From NCBI GenBank assembly GCA_041485695.1, contig JBGPJZ010000004.1, forward strand, positions 1 through 46,718: a DNA stretch of 46,718 nucleotides, read 5' to 3'. Shown one piece after another: positions 5,842 through 18,900 of this stretch. The position numbers and the translations under genes are program-made. Numbering within the stretch: position 1 is the first letter of the stretch; each line of letters starts with the position of its first letter. The notes beneath the pieces are model-generated. The model worked only from the letters and a program-made list of their open reading frames with translations. It ran no database searches and was not told the origin of the DNA. The DNA comes from Minisyncoccia bacterium (lineage in GTDB: Bacteria; Patescibacteriota; Minisyncoccia; Phycocordibacterales; Phycocordibacteraceae).

Positions 5842-5929
5842 GGGTTTGCCCCCAAAGTTGCAGACTATAATTTAGCATATACATGTGTTCCTGTCAAGCA
5901 TTACAGCCAAGGGTGGTATCATGCGTTTT

Positions 5930-7594
5930 ATGAGTTTTGACACCGATGCCGAGGACGCGAAGCTCGCTGCTATGCGAGAGAGCGAGGAGGAGGACGTCGT
6001 TAGGATACTCTCCGACAAATACAGTCTTGCCTACGCCGACCTCTCCCTCACCCCGATTGACACCGAAGCTCTGCGAGTCATACCTGAAGAGAAGGCGCGC
6101 ACGGCCGAGACGGCAGCATTCGAGAAATCAGGAGTACACCTCTCGCTCGCGGTTCGCAATCCCAACAACCCGGCTCTCGCTCTCTTGTTAGCCGACCTCG
6201 AAAACCGCAACTTTGTCCTCAAACAATTCCTTGTCTCGCAAAAGAGCATCGATAAAGCGCTCGCGCGCTACGCTGAACTCTCATACGTCACTCAGAGCAA
6301 GACCGGCGTCTTCGACATCAGTAGCGATGTGCTCAAGAAGTTAGCGGAAAAGATTGCTTCGCTTGCGAGCCTCAAGGCTGAGCTTGACGCAGCGAAGGGA
6401 GAAAAGGCGCTCGACCGCGTCTCTCGCACCATCGAGGTCGTGCTCGCGAGTGCGCTCTCCTTGAAAGCCTCGGATATCCATTTTGAGCCTGAAGAGGATC
6501 GAGTCCGGCTCCGGCTCCGGCTCGACGGCATTCTCACCGATGCGTACTTTTTCGACCATCCAACGTATCACCTCGTTTCCTCACGCATCAAATTACTTTC
6601 GGGGGTTAAGATAAACGTCGTGAACCGCGCGCAGGATGGGCGCTTTTCGATTCAAGCTGGCGAGAACGAGATTGAAATCCGCGCTTCATTTATCCCCGAC
6701 CCGTATGGAGAATCAGTCGTGCTCCGCGTGCTTGACCCGAGCGCACTCAACCTTTCAATCGACTCACTTGGCATTAACCAGAAGCTCCTTGAACGCCTTA
6801 AAAAGGAAATCCGGCGATCGAACGGGATGCTCCTCACTACGGGTCCTACCGGGTCAGGCAAGACGACCGCGCTCTACACCTTCATAAAAGATATCCAGAC
6901 GCCCGATATTAAAATCATCACCATCGAAGACCCTATCGAGTACCGCCTCGCGGGCGTCGTTCAAACACAAGCTGACGGCAAGGAATACACCTTCGCCAAA
7001 GGGCTCCGCTCCATCGTCCGGCAGGACCCTGATGTCATCATGGTGGGCGAGATACGCGACGGAGAGACCGCAAACATCGCCATCGAAGCCGCGCTCACAG
7101 GGCACTTTGTCTTCTCGACCCTACACACCAATAATGCGGCAGGGACCTTTCCTCGCCTCGTCGATCTCGGCGCTGACCCAAAGTCATTCGGCTCGGCTAT
7201 CACCGTTTCGATGGCACAACGTCTTATACGCCAGCTCGACCCAGAACGTAAGAAAGAGCGCCCGACAACCGACAGAGAGAGAAAAATGATTGAAAAATTA
7301 TTCAAAGGCGTTGCCGACACGTCCTTGGTGCCTCAAGAGGCTAAAAAAGTCTGGGGTCCGGTGCCGGATGACGAGCACACGGGTTACAAGAGCCGCACCG
7401 GCATCCACGAGGCGATATTTATGGACGACGAACTCGCGACTCTCCTCCGCGATAACCCGCCCGAGCACGAAATAGCGAAGAGCGTCATACGCCAGGGCTA
7501 TCTCACGATGGCGCAAGAGGGTGTTGCAAAAGCTCTCGCTGGAATGACCTCACTCGATGAAGTCGCCAAGACTGTTGACCTCCCTTACGAATAG
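5930..7594 (+). CDS. pilB: PilB/GspE-family type IV pilus assembly ATPase
   Basis: ASDIHFEP, QDGRF, Walker A GPTGSGKT, TIEDPIEY, RQDPDVIMVGEIRD, LTGHFVFSTLH; start chosen 7 nt after TGgTATCAT. Confidence 0.9.
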   Translation: MSFDTDAEDAKLAAMRESEEEDVVRILSDKYSLAYADLSLTPIDTEALRVIPEEKARTAETAAFEKSGVHLSLAVRNPNNPALALLLADLENRNFVLKQFLVSQKSIDKALARYAELSYVTQSKTGVFDISSDVLKKLAEKIASLASLKAELDAAKGEKALDRVSRTIEVVLASALSLKASDIHFEPEEDRVRLRLRLDGILTDAYFFDHPTYHLVSSRIKLLSGVKINVVNRAQDGRFSIQAGENEIEIRASFIPDPYGESVVLRVLDPSALNLSIDSLGINQKLLERLKKEIRRSNGMLLTTGPTGSGKTTALYTFIKDIQTPDIKIITIEDPIEYRLAGVVQTQADGKEYTFAKGLRSIVRQDPDVIMVGEIRDGETANIAIEAALTGHFVFSTLHTNNAAGTFPRLVDLGADPKSFGSAITVSMAQRLIRQLDPERKKERPTTDRERKMIEKLFKGVADTSLVPQEAKKVWGPVPDDEHTGYKSRTGIHEAIFMDDELATLLRDNPPEHEIAKSVIRQGYLTMAQEGVAKALAGMTSLDEVAKTVDLPYE

Positions 7595-9028
7595 TTACGC
7601 CCAAGCCGCAAATGTCCGGGCATAGAGGCGACTGAGGCGACTATATGAGAGGGAGAGACCCGCTGCCACGAAGGAAAAGTAGATGGGCTCGAAGACGACA
7701 CGATAGCGAGCGTCGATACTTGCCGCGACCGGCAGCGTCACCACAATAAAGTATGCGATCGTTGTAGCACCAAAGAGGGCGAGCGTCCGCTGTTCTCTAT
7801 CTCCTTTCTTGAGGACAAGCCCGAAACCAAGAATTGCAAAGAGTATGAAGAGGAACCAGATAGGTCGCAGAATGAACGGAATGATGTACGAGCCTTTCAG
7901 ATACGGTAACAAATCTCTAATCGCCTGAACGGGCCCTTGTTGCACGATGGTAAGCGAGAGCGGGATGGGCGGACGCGTTGCCTCGGCGACGAGGCCTGTG
8001 TGGTTCAACATCCAGAGCATGTTGTCTTGCGTAAGAATCGCCTGGAGGGAGAGGAGCTCGAGGAGAACGAATTCTTTCGGATGTGCTCTTATCGTCGCGA
8101 GCGTGCGCTCTCGGAGGAGCGCATTGAATTTAACATTGTAGAGTTCGTACTCTTTAAGCTCGGTAAGGTACCCTTCATCTTTAAGCTCAGTCAGGTGCGC
8201 GAGATAGCTCGTTGAAAAGTCGGTCTTAGAAACCATAGCATCGATCGTGATCGCAGTGCGGGTATAGGCGTTCACCCACCCGACTGAAGAGAAGGAGAAC
8301 GAGCCGGTCTCTACGTAGTTACGGTAATTCCACGCACCGAGGCACGAGAGCGAGAGGAGGAGAAAACAAAGACCTGCGATAACGCCTTTTTTAAATTCAC
8401 GATTCACATAGTACGGAACCAATACGACGACGAGGGCAATGGGGATAAAATACAGGAGCGCCGGGCGGATATATGCACCAACAACCAAGAGCGCCGTTGC
8501 CGAAAGAACCAGGGAGAGACGCGGTTGTTGAATGTGTTTAAAAAGTACGTAGACAAGGCCGCAGAGAATCGGAATAAAAAGCCCTTCAGTACCGATACCG
8601 AGGCTGTAAAAATTGAGGTGGGGCTCAAACGCCGTCAGGTACCCTGAGAGGAGGGCGACGTCTCTTCGTCTGAAGATCGCAAACGCAAGGAGGACAGCAA
8701 ACACGGGAACGAAAGCGCCCAACACTGCCTGAATGACTGACGCGAGCCAAAAATCATGTGATACGGCGTAGACCGCCGCGAGAAAAAGCGGGTACCCCGG
8801 GGTGCGAAGCGTGTCGGGGAGATAGGGCGTGCTTGTCGAAAGAGAAAATGTCCCTTGTTCAAGCACGTTGTGAGCCAACTGTACGTATTGCTTCGTATCT
8901 ACCCACGAAAGCCCGTTTTTAACGCCAAAATTGAAAAAGAGAAACGAGAACATCGCCAGATGCACAGCAAGAGCTACACAAAATAAGATGACGAGCGAAC
9001 GTCTGCTCAAAAGACCCGGTGTTTCCAT
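7595..9028 (-). CDS. Polytopic GT-C fold glycosyltransferase (ArnT/PMT-like)
   Basis: Many TM segments; D..QY..LA, RTPGYPLFLA, TEGLF, W..RNY, RYR motifs. Confidence 0.8.
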   Translation of the reverse strand: METPGLLSRRSLVILFCVALAVHLAMFSFLFFNFGVKNGLSWVDTKQYVQLAHNVLEQGTFSLSTSTPYLPDTLRTPGYPLFLAAVYAVSHDFWLASVIQAVLGAFVPVFAVLLAFAIFRRRDVALLSGYLTAFEPHLNFYSLGIGTEGLFIPILCGLVYVLFKHIQQPRLSLVLSATALLVVGAYIRPALLYFIPIALVVVLVPYYVNREFKKGVIAGLCFLLLSLSCLGAWNYRNYVETGSFSFSSVGWVNAYTRTAITIDAMVSKTDFSTSYLAHLTELKDEGYLTELKEYELYNVKFNALLRERTLATIRAHPKEFVLLELLSLQAILTQDNMLWMLNHTGLVAEATRPPIPLSLTIVQQGPVQAIRDLLPYLKGSYIIPFILRPIWFLFILFAILGFGLVLKKGDREQRTLALFGATTIAYFIVVTLPVAASIDARYRVVFEPIYFSFVAAGLSLSYSRLSRLYARTFAAWA

Positions 9029-10017
9029 GTGAGCGGTGTCTTGTCGTTAACGAGCTCGAGCTCAAGGTGGTAGGAAAACGGCTTCGGTCCTTTCATCTTA
9101 ATCCACTCAATAAGGTCCGCGAGTCCCTCATTAAGGGTTTTGCTCGTTGTGTACCCCAATAACAAACGGGCCTTATCTGCCGAACATGTCGCGAACTTAA
9201 CTTCAAGCGGCCTATCAACGAAGTGAACCGGTTCTAGAGGGTCAAACTTCATGAGTCGTGCGATGCGCCGTGAAAGCTCGTTGATGGTGATGAACTCGTC
9301 ATCGGGTCCCACATTAATAACCTCGCCTCGCACCTCGGGGAGAAACCCGGCCTTATACATCGGCTCGACGACGTCTTGTACGAACGAGAATCCGCGCTTC
9401 TGCTCGCCGTCACCATAGATGATCGGCTGGCGCCCTTGGAGCATGAGATTGATCATAATCGAGGCGACGTTGCGAAAAGGGTCGTCGTACTTCTGCCGTG
9501 GGCCGATAATGTTGTGCGGCACGATGTGGGTATATTCGAGCCCGTGCGCTTTCGCGAGTGCGGCGATGGTGAGCTCGGCTGCATATTTGGCGATACCGTA
9601 GGGGTCGACGGGCATGGGTTGCATGTCCTCGGTGAAAAGCGGGTTTTCTTGCCTGCCGTAGCGAGCCATGCTCGAAGTGAACACTATCCGCCGTACTCCG
9701 GTGGCGATTGCCGCCGTAACGACCGCGATGGTGGCATTATAGGTGTGCTTGGTGATGAGGTTCGGGGAAAATACCGAGAGCCCTTCATGAGGCGCCGCGG
9801 CACAGTGGTAGACGACCTCAACACCCTTCATTAAGTCACGCATTCTTTCAAAATCACAGCAATCCGCCTCGTAAAACTCAATTCCTTCGGGGACATTCTC
9901 AGGGTACCCGCCAAGAAAGTTGTCGACGCCGATAACCTCGTGCCCTTGCTTGAGGAGTTCATCTGCCAAGTGACTCCCAAGAAAGCCGGCTACGCCGGTT
10001 ACGAACGTTTTAGACAT
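9007..10017 (-). CDS. NAD-dependent nucleotide-sugar epimerase/dehydratase
   Basis: TGVAGFLGS Rossmann motif, SSMARYG, catalytic YGIAK. Confidence 0.92.
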   Translation of the reverse strand: MSKTFVTGVAGFLGSHLADELLKQGHEVIGVDNFLGGYPENVPEGIEFYEADCCDFERMRDLMKGVEVVYHCAAAPHEGLSVFSPNLITKHTYNATIAVVTAAIATGVRRIVFTSSMARYGRQENPLFTEDMQPMPVDPYGIAKYAAELTIAALAKAHGLEYTHIVPHNIIGPRQKYDDPFRNVASIMINLMLQGRQPIIYGDGEQKRGFSFVQDVVEPMYKAGFLPEVRGEVINVGPDDEFITINELSRRIARLMKFDPLEPVHFVDRPLEVKFATCSADKARLLLGYTTSKTLNEGLADLIEWIKMKGPKPFSYHLELELVNDKTPLTWKHRVF

Positions 10018-10019
10018 TG

Positions 10020-10943
10020 CTACAGAGTATTAGATGCGCCCGTTCGGGTCAAACGCGCATATACCTCCCACTCCTCGCCCAAGCAAAACAGTATCTCGAT
10101 ATGAGAAAGGGCGCGCTGGATAACGTTAGGGAGTTTGAGACCCAGGCGTGTGAAGAGGTAGCCGAGAGAAAAATGAAACACGTGCCACCGCCACGAAACC
10201 GGCGTGAGCGAATGGCGTTCAAAAAGCTTTGTGAGGCTCGACTTCGTAAAGTACCAGATGTGAGCCGGAAAGAGGAAATACCAGCGTCTCCCGAGCATCT
10301 TCCTCGTGAGGGACTCGAAGCGCGGAGTAGTGATGAGGAGGACGCCGCCCGGCTTCAAAAGCGAGGCGGCATTATTCACAAGAGTTGCCGGGTCATGAAC
10401 GTGCTCGATGACATCGAACAACGTCACGACGTCATATGCCCTGCTCTTAGAGCCAGAAGCAATCTCGTCCGCGAACTCGATTGGGCTCACGAGAGTAATG
10501 CCGTACTCCTTCTTCGCGTATGCGCGTGCCCAGGACGCTGCCTCTGCCCCGCTTACTTCCCACCCGGCCTTTCTCGCTTCGTCTAAAAACACGCCAGGGC
10601 CCGCGCCGAAATCAAATATGCGGCCGCGTTTACCAAGGAGCCTTTCGATGCGTGAGAGCGTCCGAAAAAACGTCTTGCGCCGGCCCTCTGCTTCAGCAAG
10701 ATACGCGAGGTCTTCAGGCTGTCGGGCGTAATACGCCGTCAGTTCCTCTTCGCGAAGACCAGTCAACGAAAATCCGAAGCCGCACGATGCACACTCGTAA
10801 ATATCGAGCGTTTCTTTGGTGTTCCCCCGCGCGATGCTATAGCCATCTCGTGAAAAGTGGTCTTTGGGAGTAACCGTGCCGGGATAACGGAGCGGAGCCT
10901 CCGCGCCGCACATGGGGCACGGTTCACTCGTCTTTAAAGTCAT
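10020..10943 (-). CDS. Class I SAM-dependent methyltransferase with N-terminal CxxC...CxxC zinc ribbon
   Basis: CPMC and CASC, DFGAGPG, FDVIEHV, LKPGGVL. Confidence 0.88.
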   Translation of the reverse strand: MTLKTSEPCPMCGAEAPLRYPGTVTPKDHFSRDGYSIARGNTKETLDIYECASCGFGFSLTGLREEELTAYYARQPEDLAYLAEAEGRRKTFFRTLSRIERLLGKRGRIFDFGAGPGVFLDEARKAGWEVSGAEAASWARAYAKKEYGITLVSPIEFADEIASGSKSRAYDVVTLFDVIEHVHDPATLVNNAASLLKPGGVLLITTPRFESLTRKMLGRRWYFLFPAHIWYFTKSSLTKLFERHSLTPVSWRWHVFHFSLGYLFTRLGLKLPNVIQRALSHIEILFCLGEEWEVYARLTRTGASNTL

Positions 10944-11664
10944 ACTTGCCGAGGACGTATTTCCCCATAATCCCCAGCACATGGAATCCGTACTGGACTG
11001 GCTTCACATGGCTCACTTCGTCTTCGTACAAGGTCGGTATCGAAATCTCCTTCACGCGGAGTCCGCGCTTAGCGCCTACAAAAAGCATCTCGCCGTCGAA
11101 ATGAAAAGTGTTGGATAATTTTTTAAACGGTATGGTTTGGAGCGCTTTGCGCGAGTAGAGCATGTAGCCCGAGTGGTACTCTGAAAAATGCAGCCCGTAG
11201 ACGAGGTTCTCGAGCGTGCTCAACCCGACATTAGCTACGAATTTGTAGACAGGCATGCCTCCCCGGAGCGCCGCTTTATGGTCCATCATGCGGGAGCCCT
11301 GAACGATGTCCGCCTCTCCGGCCTCAAGCGGTCGGAGAAGGGTCGGCAGTATTTCAGGAGCATATTGCCCGTCAGCGTGAAGCATTGCCACGATGTCAGC
11401 GCCGCGCAGGAGGGCAAACGTGTAACCATCCTTCTGCGCCTGGGCATATCCCTGGTTTTGTTTCTTATCAATCACATGAATTGTAGCGAGGTCTCCAAAA
11501 CGCGACTGAATTTCAGCGATACGCTCCATGGTGTTATCGGTACTCCCGTCGTTCACGATGACAAATTCCGGGTGTTTCTCCCACACCGCCTTTGGCATTC
11601 GTTCGAACACCAATACGATTTTTTTTGCCGCGTTATAAGCCGGCATGAGTATGAAAATCTTCAT
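10924..11664 (-). CDS. GT2 glycosyltransferase (polyprenol-phosphate sugar synthase-like)
   Basis: MPAYNA, VNDGSTD, NQGYA, HADGQY, GSR motifs; start at MKIFIL. Confidence 0.9.
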   Translation of the reverse strand: MKIFILMPAYNAAKKIVLVFERMPKAVWEKHPEFVIVNDGSTDNTMERIAEIQSRFGDLATIHVIDKKQNQGYAQAQKDGYTFALLRGADIVAMLHADGQYAPEILPTLLRPLEAGEADIVQGSRMMDHKAALRGGMPVYKFVANVGLSTLENLVYGLHFSEYHSGYMLYSRKALQTIPFKKLSNTFHFDGEMLFVGAKRGLRVKEISIPTLYEDEVSHVKPVQYGFHVLGIMGKYVLGKYDFKDE

Positions 11665-11717
11665 GGTCGCTTGTACCGCCCTAGTATAACCTAGCGCCTC
11701 CGGAAGCCAACCTTGCA

Positions 11718-11899
11718 GAAACGCCCGACAACATGCCGGGCGTTTCAACGATCATGCACACGCTCCTCCAGGCGCGAACGATATCACTCGAGGATAATTC
11801 CAGTCACCCCACTCAAGGTGGGAACCAGAAAGTCCTTAGGGAAACGCCCGGAGCCGTCAAGCCTTGCCCAGAGGAGTGTGGGCACGATCGAAAGTAACT
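11718..11899 (-). ncRNA. Candidate structured ncRNA (6S-like rod or attenuator) ending in a terminator-like hairpin
   Basis: 25-nt arms 11866-11890 and 11749-11773 pair at 23/25 on the minus strand; apical CCCAC/GTGGG stem; 13-bp hairpin 11718-11746; upstream minus-strand promoter. Confidence 0.6.
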
Positions 11900-11935
11900 G
11901 GTATAATGCTAGCACACAGCGAAGTCGTATGTCAA
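11899..11935. promoter_or_regulatory. Overlapping divergent sigma70-type promoters (ncRNA candidate / ruvB)
   Basis: Minus: TTGACA (11930-11935), 18 nt, TAGCAT (11906-11911) with TG extension. Plus: TGgTATAAT (11899-11907). Confidence 0.7.
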
Positions 11936-12927
11936 CCCCTCGTACAGACACCCCCTTGCCGCTTGACCAATCGCTCGATTCGGCCTTGCGGCCTTCAAGA
12001 TGGGACGAATACATCGGGCAACAGCAAGTAAAGGCCAATGTACGCATCATTTTAGACGCAGCCAAGAAACGCGGGAGCATGCCCGAGCACTTTCTCTTTT
12101 ACGGGCCGCCTGGGGTTGGCAAGACGACGCTCGCGCACCTTATCGCTGCCCAACTCGAGGCTCCGCTTAAAACAACCTCGGGAGTAGCGGTAGAGCGCGC
12201 AGGAGACTTGGCCGCGATTTTAACAAACCTAGAGCCGAACACTGTCTTATTTATCGACGAGATACATCAACTCCCGCGAAAGGTCGAGGAGCTCCTCTAC
12301 CCCGCTCTCGAAAGCGGCACCTTAGATATTATCCTCGGTAAGGGCCCCTCCGCTCGTACTGTCGAGCTCACTCTCCCGTCCTTCACTCTTGTGGGAGCGA
12401 CAACGCGGGTCGCACAACTTTCAGCGCCGCTTCGTTCGCGCTTCGGCGGCGGGGTCTACCAACTCGACTTTTACTCGGAAAACGACTTGAAAGACATCAT
12501 CCGTCGCTCGGCAAAGGTTCTTAACCTCTCGGCTCCCGAGGAGGTCATCAATATGGTAGCGGCTCGGAGCCGAGCGACCCCGCGTGTCGCGAACGCTCTC
12601 TTGAAACGCGTTCGCGACTTTTCTGAAGTGCGCGAGCGCGAGCTTTCTGCACAAGTGTGCGACGAGGCGTGCGAGCTCTTCGGTATTGATGCTACTGGTC
12701 TCACCAAAGACGATCGGCGCTATCTTACGACCCTTGAGAAAAGCTTCCGCGGCGGGCCCGCGGGTATCCGCGCCTTAGCAGCCGCGCTCCATGAAGACCC
12801 CGACACGCTTGAGTATGTCTACGAGCCGTTTCTCCTGCGCCTTGGCTTCATCGAGCGCTCCTCGCAAGGCCGCATCCTGACCGCTCGTGGCCGTGCCTAT
12901 CTCCACGGCGAAAAGAACTTGTTTTAA
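11929..12927 (+). CDS. ruvB: Holliday junction branch migration ATPase RuvB
   Basis: LRP...EYIGQ, YGPPGVGKTTLA, LFIDEIH, FTLVGATTR, YEPFL. Confidence 0.96.
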   Translation: MSTPRTDTPLPLDQSLDSALRPSRWDEYIGQQQVKANVRIILDAAKKRGSMPEHFLFYGPPGVGKTTLAHLIAAQLEAPLKTTSGVAVERAGDLAAILTNLEPNTVLFIDEIHQLPRKVEELLYPALESGTLDIILGKGPSARTVELTLPSFTLVGATTRVAQLSAPLRSRFGGGVYQLDFYSENDLKDIIRRSAKVLNLSAPEEVINMVAARSRATPRVANALLKRVRDFSEVRERELSAQVCDEACELFGIDATGLTKDDRRYLTTLEKSFRGGPAGIRALAAALHEDPDTLEYVYEPFLLRLGFIERSSQGRILTARGRAYLHGEKNLF

Positions 12928-12935
12928 CGAGAAAC

Positions 12936-13493
12936 ATGTCCGGACATAGCAAATGGGCGCAGATAAAAAGGGGAAAGGCGGTCACTGACGCGGCGAAGAG
13001 CCGTGTGTTTTCACGTTTTGCACGTTTAATTGCCCTTGAATCGAAGAAAGCTAACGGGAGTGTAACCGTGCCAGGACTCGCCGCCGTCATTGCGCGTGCA
13101 AAAGCGGCGAATATGCCTAAGGAAAACATTGAACGTGCAATTGCTAAAGGTATTTCAAAAGATTCAGGAGCACCCGAGCAGGTGGTGTACGAGTGCTACG
13201 GACCCGGTGGCACTGCCGTAATCATTGACGCCCTCACGGATAATAAAAATCGCACCACGCAGGAGATAAAGCATTTGCTCATTCTGCATGAGATCGAGCT
13301 CGCCGCCCCGGGGAGCGCACTGTGGGCATTCGCAAAATCACCTGACGGAGCTTTCCTGCCGAAAGAGCCTTTGACTGAAATCGCCGGTGAGGACGAGAAG
13401 AGGCTCGGCGAGATTCTCTCTAGCCTCGACGAACATGAAGATGTGCAAGATGTGTACACGAACGCCCGCGGCTATGAAAGTACTCGGGATTGA
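12936..13493 (+). CDS. yebC: YebC/PmpR family protein (short form, 185 aa)
   Basis: MSGHSKWAQIK, NMPKENIERAI, YECYGPGG, TDNKNRT, DVQDVYTN. Confidence 0.93.
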   Translation: MSGHSKWAQIKRGKAVTDAAKSRVFSRFARLIALESKKANGSVTVPGLAAVIARAKAANMPKENIERAIAKGISKDSGAPEQVVYECYGPGGTAVIIDALTDNKNRTTQEIKHLLILHEIELAAPGSALWAFAKSPDGAFLPKEPLTEIAGEDEKRLGEILSSLDEHEDVQDVYTNARGYESTRD

Positions 13494-14187: not shown

Positions 14188-16344
14188 ATGCATCGCCCCC
14201 GCCCGTGGTATGCGCTGACGCGCATCGCTGCCGCCCTCCTCTTCTTTCTCGCAGGAGGCTTTCTCTTGTGGGCTGCACTCGTCCCCACGCCTGATATCGC
14301 CTCGTTCGGGAGCCGCGAAGTGACTCAGTCGACCAAAATCTACGACCGGACAGGACAGGTTCTTCTCTATGACTACAATCGCGACGCAAGGCGTGACATC
14401 GTTCCCCTCTCCGCTATCTCGGAGTACGCGCGCAATGCAGCCATCGCGATTGAAGATGCCGATTTCTACCAGCATGGCGGTATCCGCCTAACATCAATCA
14501 TCCGTGCGATGATTGCCGACGTGCTCGGCTCGGGGCCCACCCAAGGAGGTTCGACCATCACTCAACAGGTCGTAAAGAATACCTTGCTCACGAGAGAGAA
14601 GAGCGTCATCCGCAAGGCCCATGAATGGGCGCTCGCCATCAAGATGGAGGAGTCGTACTCGAAAGATCAGATTCTCGAAACGTATCTAAATGATATCCCC
14701 TATGGAGGCACCCTATACGGCATCGAGGCAGCGAGCGAGACTTATTTCGGCATCCCCGCGAAAGATCTCGACCTGGCACAGTCAGCCTATCTCGCGGCAT
14801 TGGTACAGGCTCCTTCGTACTTCTCTCCCTACGGGTCACACACAGGGGAACTTGCGACACGCAAAGACCTGGTGCTGACCCGCATGCAGGAGCTTGGATT
14901 CATCACCAAGGAACAGCAGGCCACGGCGAGCGGCGAAAAGGTCTCGTTTTCAGTGCAAAGCGGCAGTTCTATCGTCGCTCCGCACTTCGTTTTCTATATC
15001 CTCGATTACTTGCGCACCAAGTACGGCGAAACGGCTCTTAAATCCGGCCTCACAGTGACAACAACGCTCGATGCCGACCTCCAAACTCATGCTGAATCAA
15101 TCATCGCTTCCTACAGCGAGAGCAATCTCAAGAATTTCAAGGCGAGCAACGAATCCATGATCGCGCTCGACCCCACGACCGGGCAGATCCTCGCCATGGT
15201 GGGTTCAAAGGACTTCTTCAGTACCGACATCGACGGCCAATACAACGCGACGTTGGCGCTCCGGCAGCCGGGCTCCACCTTTAAGCCGTTCGTCTATGCG
15301 CTCGCTCTCATGAAAGGCTTCACGCGCGACACGGTGGTGTACGACGTGCCGACGCAGTTCTCGACCTCCTGTAACCCGAGTGACATCACCAAAGACGACC
15401 CTCCTTGCTACGCGCCGCAAGACTTCGACGGCCAGTACCGCGGGCCGATGACCTTCGAGACGGCGCTCGCGCAGTCAATCAACATCCCGGCTATCAAGGT
15501 GCTCTATTTGGTGGGCGTCCGTAATGCCGTGGCCCTCGCAGAGTCGCTTGGCATCACGACCCTTGGCGATCCAAACCAGTATGGGCTCACCCTGGTCCTC
15601 GGCGGCGGCGAGGTACGACTCCTCGACCTTGCGAGTGCGTACGGGGTGTTCGCCGCCGACGGGATTCGTAACCCCCCAAGCGGCATTCTTGAGGTCACCG
15701 ACAGCACAGGGAGCGCCCTTGAACAATTCTCCTCTTCAGCGATCCAAGTACTTCCTCCGGATATTGCGCGCGGCATATCGGCGATGCTTTCTGACAACCT
15801 CGCGCGCGTGCCTGAATATCCGATACAGAACCCATTCAACTTCCCCGGATACGATGTAGCCACTAAAACGGGTACCACGAACGACACACGCGATGCGTGG
15901 GTCGTTGGCTATACTCCTTCCATCGTCATCGGCACCTGGGCGGGGAATAATGACAACTCGCCTATGGTGAAAAGTATCGCGGGCTTCATCGTGGCGCCGA
16001 TGTGGCATGACGTCATGTCCTACGCCCTCACGAAGTACCCGAGGGCCTACTTCGGCGAGCCGGCGCCTATTTTCTCCACTGTTCCGCCCATGCTCCAGGG
16101 TAATTGGCAGGTTGCTGACCGCAACGGCCAGCTCGTCCCCCACGATTTGCTGTACTGGGTGGATAAAAATAACCCCCAAGGGCCGCCTCCGGCCGATCCT
16201 CCGAGCGACCCTCAGTTTGCCTATTGGGAATATGCGCTCGGTACCTGGTTCTCTTCACACCCCGGCGCCGTAAACCCACCTCTTTTCGTACCCACCTCCG
16301 CCCCTGATGCTGCGAGCTCAACCCCGACACCCTCCCCCTACTGA
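14188..16344 (+). CDS. Class A penicillin-binding protein (transglycosylase + transpeptidase)
   Basis: EDADFYQHGG, GGSTITQQVVKN, RKAHE, YLN.IPYG; transpeptidase STFK, SIN, KTGT; start at MHRP after the terminator. Confidence 0.95.
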   Translation: MHRPRPWYALTRIAAALLFFLAGGFLLWAALVPTPDIASFGSREVTQSTKIYDRTGQVLLYDYNRDARRDIVPLSAISEYARNAAIAIEDADFYQHGGIRLTSIIRAMIADVLGSGPTQGGSTITQQVVKNTLLTREKSVIRKAHEWALAIKMEESYSKDQILETYLNDIPYGGTLYGIEAASETYFGIPAKDLDLAQSAYLAALVQAPSYFSPYGSHTGELATRKDLVLTRMQELGFITKEQQATASGEKVSFSVQSGSSIVAPHFVFYILDYLRTKYGETALKSGLTVTTTLDADLQTHAESIIASYSESNLKNFKASNESMIALDPTTGQILAMVGSKDFFSTDIDGQYNATLALRQPGSTFKPFVYALALMKGFTRDTVVYDVPTQFSTSCNPSDITKDDPPCYAPQDFDGQYRGPMTFETALAQSINIPAIKVLYLVGVRNAVALAESLGITTLGDPNQYGLTLVLGGGEVRLLDLASAYGVFAADGIRNPPSGILEVTDSTGSALEQFSSSAIQVLPPDIARGISAMLSDNLARVPEYPIQNPFNFPGYDVATKTGTTNDTRDAWVVGYTPSIVIGTWAGNNDNSPMVKSIAGFIVAPMWHDVMSYALTKYPRAYFGEPAPIFSTVPPMLQGNWQVADRNGQLVPHDLLYWVDKNNPQGPPPADPPSDPQFAYWEYALGTWFSSHPGAVNPPLFVPTSAPDAASSTPTPSPY

Positions 16345-17438
16345 TTCATCGGCATCACAAGATACAGAAGAGACGCGTCGCCGGTACCGCGCATGAGGAG
16401 AGGCCTCCCTATCCCGCTTGCAGTAAGCGAAACGCTTTGCGCCTCGGCAAGCGAAAAGAACGCCGTGAGGTAGCGGTGATTGAAGGAGAGGTCGATGGCG
16501 CTCCCTGATACCTGTCCTGCGATAGACTCCGTCGACTCCCCGACGTCTGCATTGCGAGAATATAGCGTGAGCGTCTTTTTCTTGGGGTCAAACGATAGTT
16601 TTATCTTTTGAAACGAATCTGAAAAAATCGTGGCGCGTTTGAGGGCAAGTTCAAGATCGCGGCGTAGCACCACCGCTTCAGCGACAGAGTCCTTGGGGAT
16701 AATCTGGCGATAATCCGGGTATACCGCCGCAGTGAGCCGTGTGGTGAGCATTCCGTGCTCGAAAATGAACGCACATTGGTGGTCATCGAAGGAGAGAATC
16801 ACCTCTTCATCAGGGAGTGCCTGGGCTATCTCGAGGGCATTTTTGGCGGGGATAAGGAGCTTACTCTGCACTCCTTTGTTGCCTAATGTAATCTTTTTTT
16901 CCGCAAGGCGGAACGAGTCGGTCGCAACCGCTGTGCAACTTCCACCCTCGACTGAAAGGTAGAGGCTCGCGAGTTCAGGGCGCACTGTCGAGGCAGAGGC
17001 ACAGCTCGCAATCGAAGAAAGGAGGTTTTTGACCGTTATTCCCGGCAACACAACCCTTCCTTTCGGAGACTCCGGGAGAGGAATGATGGGAAAATCTTCA
17101 TAAGGGACGGTTTTTATCGTACTACGCGCAGTACCGCTTTTGAAAATAATAGTGTCCCCGCTTTGTTCAAGAGTCACCTCTCCTTCCCCCGTCTGCGAGA
17201 GAGCAATCTGCTCAAGTACCCGGGCGGGGATAGCGACTACACCCTCTCCTTTGTGGTTTCCGGGTATTTTTAAATCAACTCCCGTTTCAAGATTTGTCGC
17301 TCTAAATTTAATTCCTTCACTCCCGCATAAAATAAGGATTGCTGAGAGGACTGGAAGTGATGCTGATCCTCGTTCAGCAAATCTAGATACTGTATGGACA
17401 GCATCAGAGAATTTCTTCTTTTCTATTGTTAAAATCAT
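16338..17438 (-). CDS. dnaN: DNA polymerase III beta sliding clamp
   Basis: 366 aa; ATNLE, VATDSFRLAE, YPDYRQIIP, YLVMPM; directly downstream of dnaA. Confidence 0.96.
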   Translation of the reverse strand: MILTIEKKKFSDAVHTVSRFAERGSASLPVLSAILILCGSEGIKFRATNLETGVDLKIPGNHKGEGVVAIPARVLEQIALSQTGEGEVTLEQSGDTIIFKSGTARSTIKTVPYEDFPIIPLPESPKGRVVLPGITVKNLLSSIASCASASTVRPELASLYLSVEGGSCTAVATDSFRLAEKKITLGNKGVQSKLLIPAKNALEIAQALPDEEVILSFDDHQCAFIFEHGMLTTRLTAAVYPDYRQIIPKDSVAEAVVLRRDLELALKRATIFSDSFQKIKLSFDPKKKTLTLYSRNADVGESTESIAGQVSGSAIDLSFNHRYLTAFFSLAEAQSVSLTASGIGRPLLMRGTGDASLLYLVMPMNQ

Positions 17439-17550
17439 ACTAAAGATATTAGTGGTGTTGTTAGTGGGGAGAACCAATTACACGCAATACTACAAATGGC
17501 GGTATTGAAAATTCGATTCTCATAAACTGTTGAAAAGAGCAATGAAACTT
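17439..17550. other. Candidate oriC element in the dnaA-dnaN spacer
   Basis: AT-rich; TTTTCAACA (minus, 17528-17536; 1 mismatch to TTWTNCACA); seven consecutive NAN triplets at 17446-17466 (minus). Confidence 0.55.
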
Positions 17551-18900
17551 TCATACCAGAAGAGTCCGGATGTCTTGGATTTCTTTTGCGAGGTCGTTGT
17601 CCACAATCACTTCGCGCTTTATCTTCTCGCAGGAGTGGATAACGGTCGTGTGGTCGCGGCCGCCTAGTTTCGACCCTATGGTTGGGTACGAAACGCTGAA
17701 GTCCTCTCGTAAGAGATACATAATCACTTGCCGAGGCCGTACCACCTCCCTACGACGGGTTTTCTCATAGATGCTTTCTTCGTCGATACCGTAAAACTCC
17801 GCGACTTTTGAGACGACGTTCTTCACCGAGACGTTCTTTTGCGGGCGAGTGAAGGAGCGGAGCGACTGCCGAACCTCGGCGATGTCGGGCGGGGTTCCTT
17901 TTACCTGTGCGTGGCACACAATGCTGTTAATCATCCCCTCAAGCTCGCGTATGGAGCCGGTAGCGGTCGTCGCGAGGTACTCGACCACCTCGTCTGAGAG
18001 CGTAACGCCGTGGAGAGCCGCCTTGCGGCGCGCAATTGACATGCGCGACTCGATGTCCGGCTCGCCTATGTCAACCGTCATCCCGCTTGCGAGCCGGCCG
18101 CGGAGACGCTCGGCGATGTCGGGGATAGCCGCAGGCGGGCGGTCTGATGAAAAAACGATCTGCTTGTTGTTGTCATGAAGGGCGTTAAAAAGATGAAAGA
18201 GCTCTTCTTCGGTCTTTTCCTTCTTCGAAAGGAACTGGACGTCGTCCATGATAAGAAGGTCGTACTGCCGGTATTTGTCTTTGAAACGATTCGCGGTTCC
18301 AGCTCCGACCGAGTCAGTGTAATCAACCACAAATTTTTCGGAGGTGAGATAGAAAGCCTTTCGAGCGGGATACGTTCTCTTAAACTGATTACCGATTGCT
18401 TGGATAAGGTGTGTCTTGCCACGGCCCGTCTCCCCGTAGATGAAGAGTGGATTATACGCGATGCCAGGCCGCGCTATTGCCGCTTGCGATGCCGCGTATG
18501 CGAGATCGTTGAATGAGCCCACCACAAATGAGTCGAAGGTATAGCGAGGATTTAAGTTATCGCTCTTATCGATATAGAATTCATTCAGCGGCAATTCAAT
18601 CGTTGGGCGCGTGCTTTTTTCCATACGCGGGGGTTTACGCCGCTCGTCTTTAACGATCTGATATTCGATATTCCGGAACTCATAGGAGATGCCGCGGACG
18701 ATCTTCAAAAGAAGCATGTTAAATTTCTTCATGTACATATCGCGGAAGAATTGGCTCGGGACGCCGATATAGATGATTCCTTCTTCAACCTTGATGAGGT
18801 GGCTATCGCGGAACCAGGTGTTGAAGTTCGCGGGGGATACCGAAAGCTCAATTTGCGAAAGAACGTGCTCCCACAACTCCCTCGGGTTACTGCGATCCAT
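17551..18900 (-). CDS. dnaA: Chromosomal replication initiator DnaA
   Basis: LNPRYTFDSFVVG, YNPLFIYGETGRGKTHL, DDVQFL, RELEG, GGRDHTTVIHS. Confidence 0.98.
   Translation of the reverse strand: MDRSNPRELWEHVLSQIELSVSPANFNTWFRDSHLIKVEEGIIYIGVPSQFFRDMYMKKFNMLLLKIVRGISYEFRNIEYQIVKDERRKPPRMEKSTRPTIELPLNEFYIDKSDNLNPRYTFDSFVVGSFNDLAYAASQAAIARPGIAYNPLFIYGETGRGKTHLIQAIGNQFKRTYPARKAFYLTSEKFVVDYTDSVGAGTANRFKDKYRQYDLLIMDDVQFLSKKEKTEEELFHLFNALHDNNKQIVFSSDRPPAAIPDIAERLRGRLASGMTVDIGEPDIESRMSIARRKAALHGVTLSDEVVEYLATTATGSIRELEGMINSIVCHAQVKGTPPDIAEVRQSLRSFTRPQKNVSVKNVVSKVAEFYGIDEESIYEKTRRREVVRPRQVIMYLLREDFSVSYPTIGSKLGGRDHTTVIHSCEKIKREVIVDNDLAKEIQDIRTLLV

Follow-up and report, generated by a model that had tools for sequence, protein, structure and literature searches.

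6S RNA (SsrS; RF00013 and lineage-specific families) is the product of a stand-alone, single-copy gene with a strong promoter, and forms a rod of ~150–190 nucleotides (nt) with a closing helix, an irregular centre that may hold side hairpins and a long terminal arm, conserved lineage-wide. The RNA described here shares these traits. It is encoded on the minus strand of the spacer between a GT2 glycosyltransferase gene and ruvB in a 46,718-nt stretch of a Minisyncoccia bacterium (assembly GCA_041485695.1, contig JBGPJZ010000004.1), which we call the window, and it differs from 6S RNA in having a closed junction at its centre, whose 5' side may have no more than 3 unpaired nt, and a distal arm that carries sequence-invariant modules. 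Bacterial signal recognition particle (SRP) RNA (4.5S; RF00169 and RF01854) is likewise a rod-shaped housekeeping RNA, whose distal internal loops bind protein; unlike it, the spacer RNA matches no SRP model and has an apical loop that is UUCG-type or variable. By eye its modules also differ from SRP helix 8, and we saw neither a GNAR tetraloop nor helix-8 motifs. The orphan RNAs raiA, OLE, ROOL and GOLLD, which are all in Rfam and were found by comparative genomics, resemble it as covariation-discovered, lineage-restricted, structured and probably protein-associated RNAs whose function was at first unknown, whereas the spacer RNA is smaller and simpler, belongs to one class of ultra-small bacteria and is fixed beside ruvB. 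Finally, the host copy recalls terminator/antiterminator leaders and riboswitches in its trailing hairpin and in an upstream 11-mer able to pair with the 5' arm of that hairpin. Unlike those systems, the RNA has no conserved downstream gene or alternative pairing, and the terminators of its relatives are constitutive.

We find that the spacer holds a real, single-copy, strand-specific RNA gene with a conserved structure that is spread across the class, and the best reading is that this RNA of ~150–185 bases is a stand-alone non-coding gene of a new family. A preliminary description of the window had proposed that a structured RNA without annotation is encoded here on the minus strand behind a promoter of its own, and could match it to no RNA family by eye; both points were borne out, the latter by Rfam. 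The spacer is 264 bp long, as first given, and spans 11665–11928, between the ATG of the GT2 gene at 11664 (Pfam Glycos_transf_2) and that of ruvB at 11929. The minus-strand promoter, TTGACA-18-TAGCAT with a TG extension (11935..11906), was confirmed with 10/12 matches, and a scan of 11300–12300 gave 4 promoter-like sites compared to 0.5 ± 0.8 in shuffles. The two closing arms do pair at 23/25 positions on the minus strand, with 20 Watson–Crick pairs, 3 G-U pairs and 2 mismatches, compared to 20 Watson–Crick pairs, 1 G-U pair and 4 mismatches when they are read as the plus strand. The minus strand folds at −94.0 kcal/mol (z −5.8; none of 200 shuffles as good) and the plus strand at −74.5 kcal/mol (z −5.1). 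Both parts of the apical stem first described, CCCAC/GUGGG and AGGA/UCCU, lie within the minimum-energy fold, and the hairpin that follows the rod was found as described, with 13 bp, a 3-nt loop and −21.4 kcal/mol. This hairpin was not listed by the terminator scan because its tail, UUUCUGCAAGG, a poor U-run, fails the T-run criterion. The earlier argument that G-U pairs favour the minus strand agrees with the relatives, where conserved pairs set the strand (U-G in 32/36 and G-U in 33/36 sequences of the order set) and where our covariance models score the same loci at 78–137 bits in sense and 37–58 bits in antisense.

The covariation among the homologous spacers of relatives is strong. In a structure-blind MAFFT alignment of 28 copies from the genus (A1), for which RNAalifold gave a consensus of 53 pairs, 96.3% of cells are paired, compared to 42–48% with the partners slid, and 26 of the 53 pairs change on both sides, compared to 13.4 in shuffles (0/500 reach 26). 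The register of two pairs is shifted in this consensus, and C-G to U-A double changes support columns 55–116 and 58–113. In A3, an alignment of 36 order-level copies fitted to the model, 93.5% of cells are paired, 44/53 pairs change on both sides, and covariation scores 0.525, where shuffles give 0.203 and slid partners no more than 0.124. The architecture that emerges is a closing helix (P1), a 5' side hairpin (P2), a distal arm (P3-P4-P5) that ends in a variable hairpin, often with a UUCG loop, and a 3' side hairpin (P6), and single-sequence folds of 12 lineages reproduce it. P1 has 22–27 nearly perfect base pairs in all lineages folded, with changes on both sides in 10/18 pairs in the genus and 15/18 in the order set. 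P2 is paired in 98.6% of cells in the genus, and in the order set all 4 of its pairs show two-sided changes; covariation in the apical stem extends to 5/5 pairs in both sets. P2 and P6 are optional: P2 is absent at five of the loci, and P6 is missing from the window copy, which therefore has three arms only. In the copies that lack P2, only 3–7 nt separate P1 from P3 on the 5' strand, and the centre is therefore not a bubble but a closed junction of three or four helices.

Sequence conservation is concentrated in few positions. Of 174 alignment columns in 44 copies, 26 reach a conservation of at least 90%, and these lie in three places, namely the inner part of P1 (CUCuAagCaa with UugcuUaGAG), AAGGAC/UAUCCUYAG and CUGGUU/ACUGG. 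The last of these blocks holds an invariant tandem U-G/G-U beside a G-C pair, and the AGGA/UCCU pairs together with those of UGG/CUG (U-G, G-U, G-C) are kept in 32–36 of 36 sequences. In contrast, the pairs between the conserved blocks covary freely. A reading of the locus as a small open reading frame (ORF) was dropped, as no frame is open in more than 4/36 sequences. We also rejected an alternative pairing of the P1 5' strand with the 3' strand of the first module, which by eye exists in the order consensus (CUCUAAG/CUUAGAG) and is absent from the genus of the window.

The RNA is single-copy in its host genome (620 kb, 12 contigs, 97% complete). BLAST detects it in 35 of the 36 further genomes of its genus and in none of 25 from other families of the order. 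Covariance models reach further: R1, built from A1, found it in 70/151 genomes drawn from the order, and R2, a second model built from the 36 copies of A3, in 40/121 genomes drawn from the class and in 3/151 from the phylum, these being the host itself, one member of its family and a genome of another class (G214). These prevalence counts are limited by the default search filters. With the filters off, six of eight filter-negative class genomes with a located ruvB carry the RNA directly upstream of that gene (46, 43.3, 36.6, 25.4, 35.4 and 31 bits); of the other two, one has a copy cut by a contig end and one lacks the RNA. Thus the two models show that annotation under default filters misses many copies. 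We define the family by P1, the junction, a distal arm with AGGA/UCCU and UGG/CUG, and a match to R2, all of which are found in the window copy (97.6 bits) without P6. In assembled contigs of relatives (four runs), 11750–11941 is shared and the sequences diverge beyond P1. One genome, G090, has two tandem copies (L048 1501–1689 and 1702–1887), which score 117.1 and 95.3 bits with R2 and 73.7 and 53.7 bits with R1.

No known family accounts for the RNA. Rfam 15 at gathering thresholds found only a tRNA in the whole window; at E up to 10, the region 11400–12200 gave two chance matches, to STnc310 (16.8 bits, on the hairpin) and to an internal ribosome entry site, and at E up to 1 there was no match at 20 loci of relatives from other families. 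By these model searches the family is absent from Rfam 15 and uncatalogued, in agreement with the preliminary description. Searches of the literature on 6S, SRP and structured or non-coding RNAs of the candidate phyla radiation (CPR), Patescibacteria and Parcubacteria found no report of it, and PMC8321541 and PMC10768705 have no bearing on it.

The promoter is as well kept as the fold. At all of 65 loci TTGAC(A)-N16-19-TAnnnT lies upstream on the RNA strand, most commonly with a 17-nt spacer, and the TG extension is present at 60 of them. In 49/65 the −35 element reads TTGACAT, whose CAT is the ruvB start on the opposite strand, with an open frame of more than 250 aa (MS...). In the window, the −10 elements of the RNA and of ruvB overlap on opposite strands and the predicted starts are ~15 bp apart, the start of the RNA probably being near A11899/G11898; the ruvB −35 lies inside the 5' arm of P1, and the RNA −35 overlaps the ruvB start. 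The two promoters are thus interlocked back-to-back. Bidirectional promoters with overlapping −10 elements, which have been reported for bacteria, are similar in the −10 overlap, but here each −35 lies inside the partner gene, with the ruvB ATG within TTGACAT. Such an arrangement could by itself keep the RNA and ruvB linked without a shared function. Downstream of P1, relatives have an immediate U-run or an unrelated terminator hairpin. In many lineages there is also a terminator-like hairpin with a U-run, 25–100 nt long, between the promoter and P1; we saw this leader at ten loci but not in the window.

The RNA is an autonomous unit, because it has its own promoter, is present at loci away from ruvB and is unlinked to ruvA, which is elsewhere in the host genome. 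In G214, it lies between a VanW-like gene and a fragment of an IS110 transposase. A RuvB_N match is absent in 9/121 class genomes, and two of these, G357 and G364, keep the RNA with its TTGACA/extended −10 promoter intact, so that joint loss with ruvB was rejected; the promoter is kept in G214 as well. In G364 (L113 2394–3287, 298 aa) and G357 (L090 2–640, 213 aa) an ORF with no Pfam family stands in the place of ruvB, and in G364 it is followed by YebC, the same order as in the window.

We hypothesize that the RNA would be transcribed on the minus strand from its near-consensus sigma-70 promoter with an extended −10 and would fold into a long rod, in which the 22–27-bp P1 leads through a three- or four-way junction with optional P2 and P6 into P3–P5, and that in most lineages the transcript would end at the U-run after P1 or at a separate terminator hairpin. 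The two invariant modules of the distal arm, together with the conserved inner part of P1, may form a docking site for a protein, since their near-invariant letters sit inside helices while the neighbouring pairs covary. The RNA would then be no cis switch but would work in trans, either as a scaffold or by restraining a protein. We put the probability that it is such a trans-acting, protein-binding rod at about 0.5. A narrower version, to which we would give somewhat less than even odds, is that the RNA is a subunit or a dedicated regulator of an undescribed housekeeping ribonucleoprotein (RNP) of this CPR-type class, with the modules and inner P1 docking the protein; this RNP would be distinct from 6S, SRP, RNase P and tmRNA. 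In the host genome, a gene cassette would have been inserted behind the RNA gene and P6 lost, with a new, poorly U-tailed hairpin following, and any read-through into the cassette would be a local side effect. Several points weigh against this picture. Fitting to the model inflates the paired percentages of A3 and of A4, relatedness among the genomes makes the shuffle controls overstate significance, and the E-values of R1 and R2 are rough. The putative binding platform is deduced from the conservation pattern, and the transcript, its ends and its abundance are predicted from sequence. A helix as long and perfect as P1 would be open to cleavage by RNase III, and the mature RNA may therefore have another form; the leader hairpin with its U-run could point to regulated or processed expression; and a role bound up with ruvB could still lie behind the very close linkage to that gene.

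One of the two original proposals was a divergent 6S-like RNA. The rod of a 6S-type RNA would mimic an open promoter and bind and hold back the sigma-70 RNA polymerase holoenzyme. The locus has the size and gene type expected of 6S (a ~150–200 nt rod from an independent, strongly promoted gene, with an irregular centre between two helices), the lengths of P1 and the distal arm would be compatible with the polymerase footprints of 6S–polymerase structures, and canonical 6S is nearly missing from the order, where RF00013 matches 1/151 genomes (26.9 bits, under the cut-off), compared to 20/151 in the phylum (7 over the cut-off); in the class it matches 5/121. However, no 6S-family model matches 11400–12200 at E up to 10, the 20 loci from other families give no RF00013 match with E up to 1, and the RF00013 matches in the host genome (10.7 and 9.5 bits) are not at the RNA locus. 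Conversely, 12 canonical 6S loci reach no more than 14 bits with R2, and none of 17 such loci is beside ruvB or T2SSE. Default filters had suggested mutual exclusion, with none of the 5 RF00013-positive class genomes among the 40 R2-positive ones (a non-overlap expected by chance at ~13% by our own arithmetic), but this was a filter artefact: with filters off, a canonical 6S match and the spacer RNA beside ruvB coexist in 4/4 genomes tested, the 6S matches scoring 52.1 bits (over the cut-off) and 42.4, 41.6 and 35.9 bits (under it). Canonical 6S RNAs of the phylum and class samples are ~150–170 nt long with a clear open bubble, and in side-by-side folds for three of the four genomes the 6S has a large open bubble and the spacer RNA a closed junction. 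The five copies without P2, with their 3–7 nt of central 5' strand, would offer no single-stranded template, and the distal arm, in contrast to the terminal stems of 6S RNAs, shows sequence conservation. The spacer RNA is a family distinct from 6S, and a 6S-like action, which now has little support, is in our view unlikely. Next to negligible is the chance that the RNA is a very divergent SRP RNA or a repeated mobile element of the miniature inverted-repeat (MITE) type. Its rod-like form would suit the former, and the small and large bacterial SRP models of Rfam match no RNA in the host genome or, over the cut-off, in any of 41 genus and 151 order genomes. Yet the protein partners are not found either. 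Pfam found neither the M domain (PF02978) nor the SRP54 GTPase (PF00448) in the host genome; a search of 61 order genomes for an SRP54-type GTPase gave nothing beyond weak P-loop fragments, and one of 81 phylum genomes with E up to 1e-10 was negative; a motif scan of all frames of at least 150 aa gave no frame with DTAGR that also has a P-loop or a TKxD motif; and tblastn with E. coli Ffh reached a best E-value of 0.006 in the host genome. The control genomes all matched in these searches. With neither Ffh nor FtsY detectable in the host genome, the SRP idea was dropped. A MITE was rejected as well, since the RNA is not multicopy but has one copy in the genome and a fixed position between T2SSE and ruvB across the class.

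Coupling to ruvB, either by competition between the divergent promoters or by an action of the RNA on RuvAB or on recombination, such as that of a branched decoy, would explain why ruvB is the upstream divergent ORF in 34/36 of those sent to Pfam (of 56 found), why its start codon lies in the RNA −35 so often and the window promoters interlock, and why most copies have a four-way junction. We consider it quite unlikely, as the strong promoter is kept away from ruvB in G214, the RNA persists in G357 and G364 with no RuvB_N match, interlocked promoters alone would preserve the linkage, and the strong covariation indicates selection on the RNA itself and not only on the act of transcription; a Holliday-junction mimic in particular was rejected, since P2 and P6 are optional, the window copy is three-armed and ruvA is unlinked. 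Alternatively, the rod could be a processing precursor, with P1 cut by RNase III like the stems that flank rRNAs and a shorter RNA being functional. The near-perfect P1 in all lineages folded and the extra 5' leader with a hairpin in many of them would fit, but the sequence conservation of inner P1 fits recognition better than mere processing, and we judge this distinctly improbable. Less credible still is the other original proposal, a cis-acting attenuator or riboswitch of the glycosylation operon, with the 11-mer at 11841–11851 as antiterminator against 11736–11746. The complementarity of these two segments is indeed perfect (11/11), but it did not stand as a built-in switch. At 1/63 loci, that of the window, the interior of the rod is complementary over at least 10 nt to a part of the 60 nt that follow P1, the others having 0–9 nt, which contradicts a switch at the level of the family. 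The pairing of the 11-mer with the hairpin crosses P1, and therefore the nested version must open the rod; this alternative folds at −74.6 against −94.0 kcal/mol, 19.4 kcal/mol worse, with a mid-helix pair probability of ~1e-12, so the two mutually exclusive folds were not upheld for the nested version, to which the calculation applies. The 3' arm of the hairpin repeats 10 nt of the conserved internal sequence, seemingly as a by-product of the rearrangement in which P6 was lost. In the host, the GT2 operon does lie downstream on the same strand, and with so weak a terminator tail, transcription in this strain may in part continue into the cassette. However, the downstream ORF is convergent at 49/57 loci, the co-directional ORFs at 7 loci belong to unrelated families, and the four-gene cassette is specific to the host genome, so that the supposed regulated operon is a local insertion. 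Furthermore, GT2 is preceded by a promoter-like site of its own, downstream of the hairpin, and we saw no conserved junction resembling a ligand pocket that is tied to a class of gene.

Table 1 Features of the RNA locus and its surroundings in the window.
Feature	Positions	Strand	Basis or remark
−35 element TTGACA of the RNA promoter	11930..11935	−	Reverse complement overlaps the ruvB start (ATGTCAA)
Extended −10: TG (11914–11913), one base, TAGCAT (11911–11906)	11906..11914	−	Promoter scan
RNA core: P1, P2, P3–P5 arm	11746..11893	−	Whole-model match; R1 114 bits, R2 97.6 bits
P1, 5' arm of closing stem	11866..11890	−	23/25 paired with 11749–11773
P1, 3' arm of closing stem	11749..11773	−	Pairs with 11866–11890
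P2 side hairpin GGCU-UGAC-GGCU	11852..11863	−	Alignment; variable or absent in other lineages
11-mer CCGGGCGUUUC	11841..11851	−	Spans the P3 5' strand GGGCG (11849–11845) and the following internal loop
P3 3' strand CGUUC	11776..11780	−	Only GC (11775–11774) follows in the window; P6 hairpin in relatives
Distal arm with two near-invariant modules	11787..11837	−	Conservation across relatives
Module 1: AAGGAC with UAUCCUCGAG	11837–11832 with 11796–11787	−	Distal arm
Module 2: CUGGUU with ACUGG	11828–11823 with 11804–11800	−	Distal arm
Apical hairpin	11808–11822	−	End of distal arm
13-bp hairpin after P1, tail UUUCUGCAAGG	11718..11746	−	Genome-specific; 3' arm repeats 10 nt of the internal 11-mer
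ruvB promoter-like site TGGGCA-17-TATAAT with TG	11879..11907	+	Consensus match only
ruvB, divergent from the RNA gene	11929..12927	+	Pfam
Promoter-like site TTGGCT-16-TATACT before GT2, downstream of the hairpin	11683..11710	−	Promoter scan
Glycosylation cassette: PMT_2-like, epimerase (NAD epimerase/dehydratase), methyltransferase, GT2 (10924–11664)	7595..11664	−	
T2SSE/PilB-like ATPase gene	5885–7594	+	Pfam

The typical setting of the RNA is between a convergent pilB-like ATPase gene and the divergent ruvB. The downstream ORF is a T2SSE/PilB-like ATPase in 34 of 43 ORFs tested, and among ten R2-positive loci, nine from the class draw and one from the family of the window, T2SSE is present at all 10 and ruvB at 8, the other two being cut by contig ends. 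T2SSE and the RNA abut in relatives, and in the window the cassette fills the gap between them (Table 1). Elsewhere in the genus, small genes of other kinds, for instance RelB or an AAA_33 kinase, occupy this gap, and it looks like an insertion hot spot. Past ruvB, a YebC/TACO1-like ORF (12936–13493, plus strand) has just 185 aa, aligns with the second/third-domain model over positions 2–55 of 160 only and may have suffered a truncation or frameshift. dnaN and dnaA lie at 16338–18900 on the minus strand, ~5 kb from the RNA, which places the locus near a probable replication origin of the host genome. RNase P RNA and tmRNA are both present in this genome by their Rfam models.

The compact RNA/ruvB arrangement is a natural case of interlocked promoters in which each gene encodes the −35 element of its partner. 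The SRP searches have a wider implication: if the absence is true, a whole phylum would be without a pathway that is usually called universal, which needs to be checked against annotated genomes. Ultra-small bacteria of the CPR type have pared-down genomes of 0.4–1.3 Mb, and retention of the RNA across the class in such genomes suggests that it is likely important to these bacteria. Its fixed structure, near-consensus promoter and covariation at most base pairs place it among the few lineage-wide non-coding RNAs of CPR-type bacteria beyond rRNA, tRNA, RNase P and tmRNA, and it would provide a defined bait for a new RNA–protein machine in organisms that are hard to grow.

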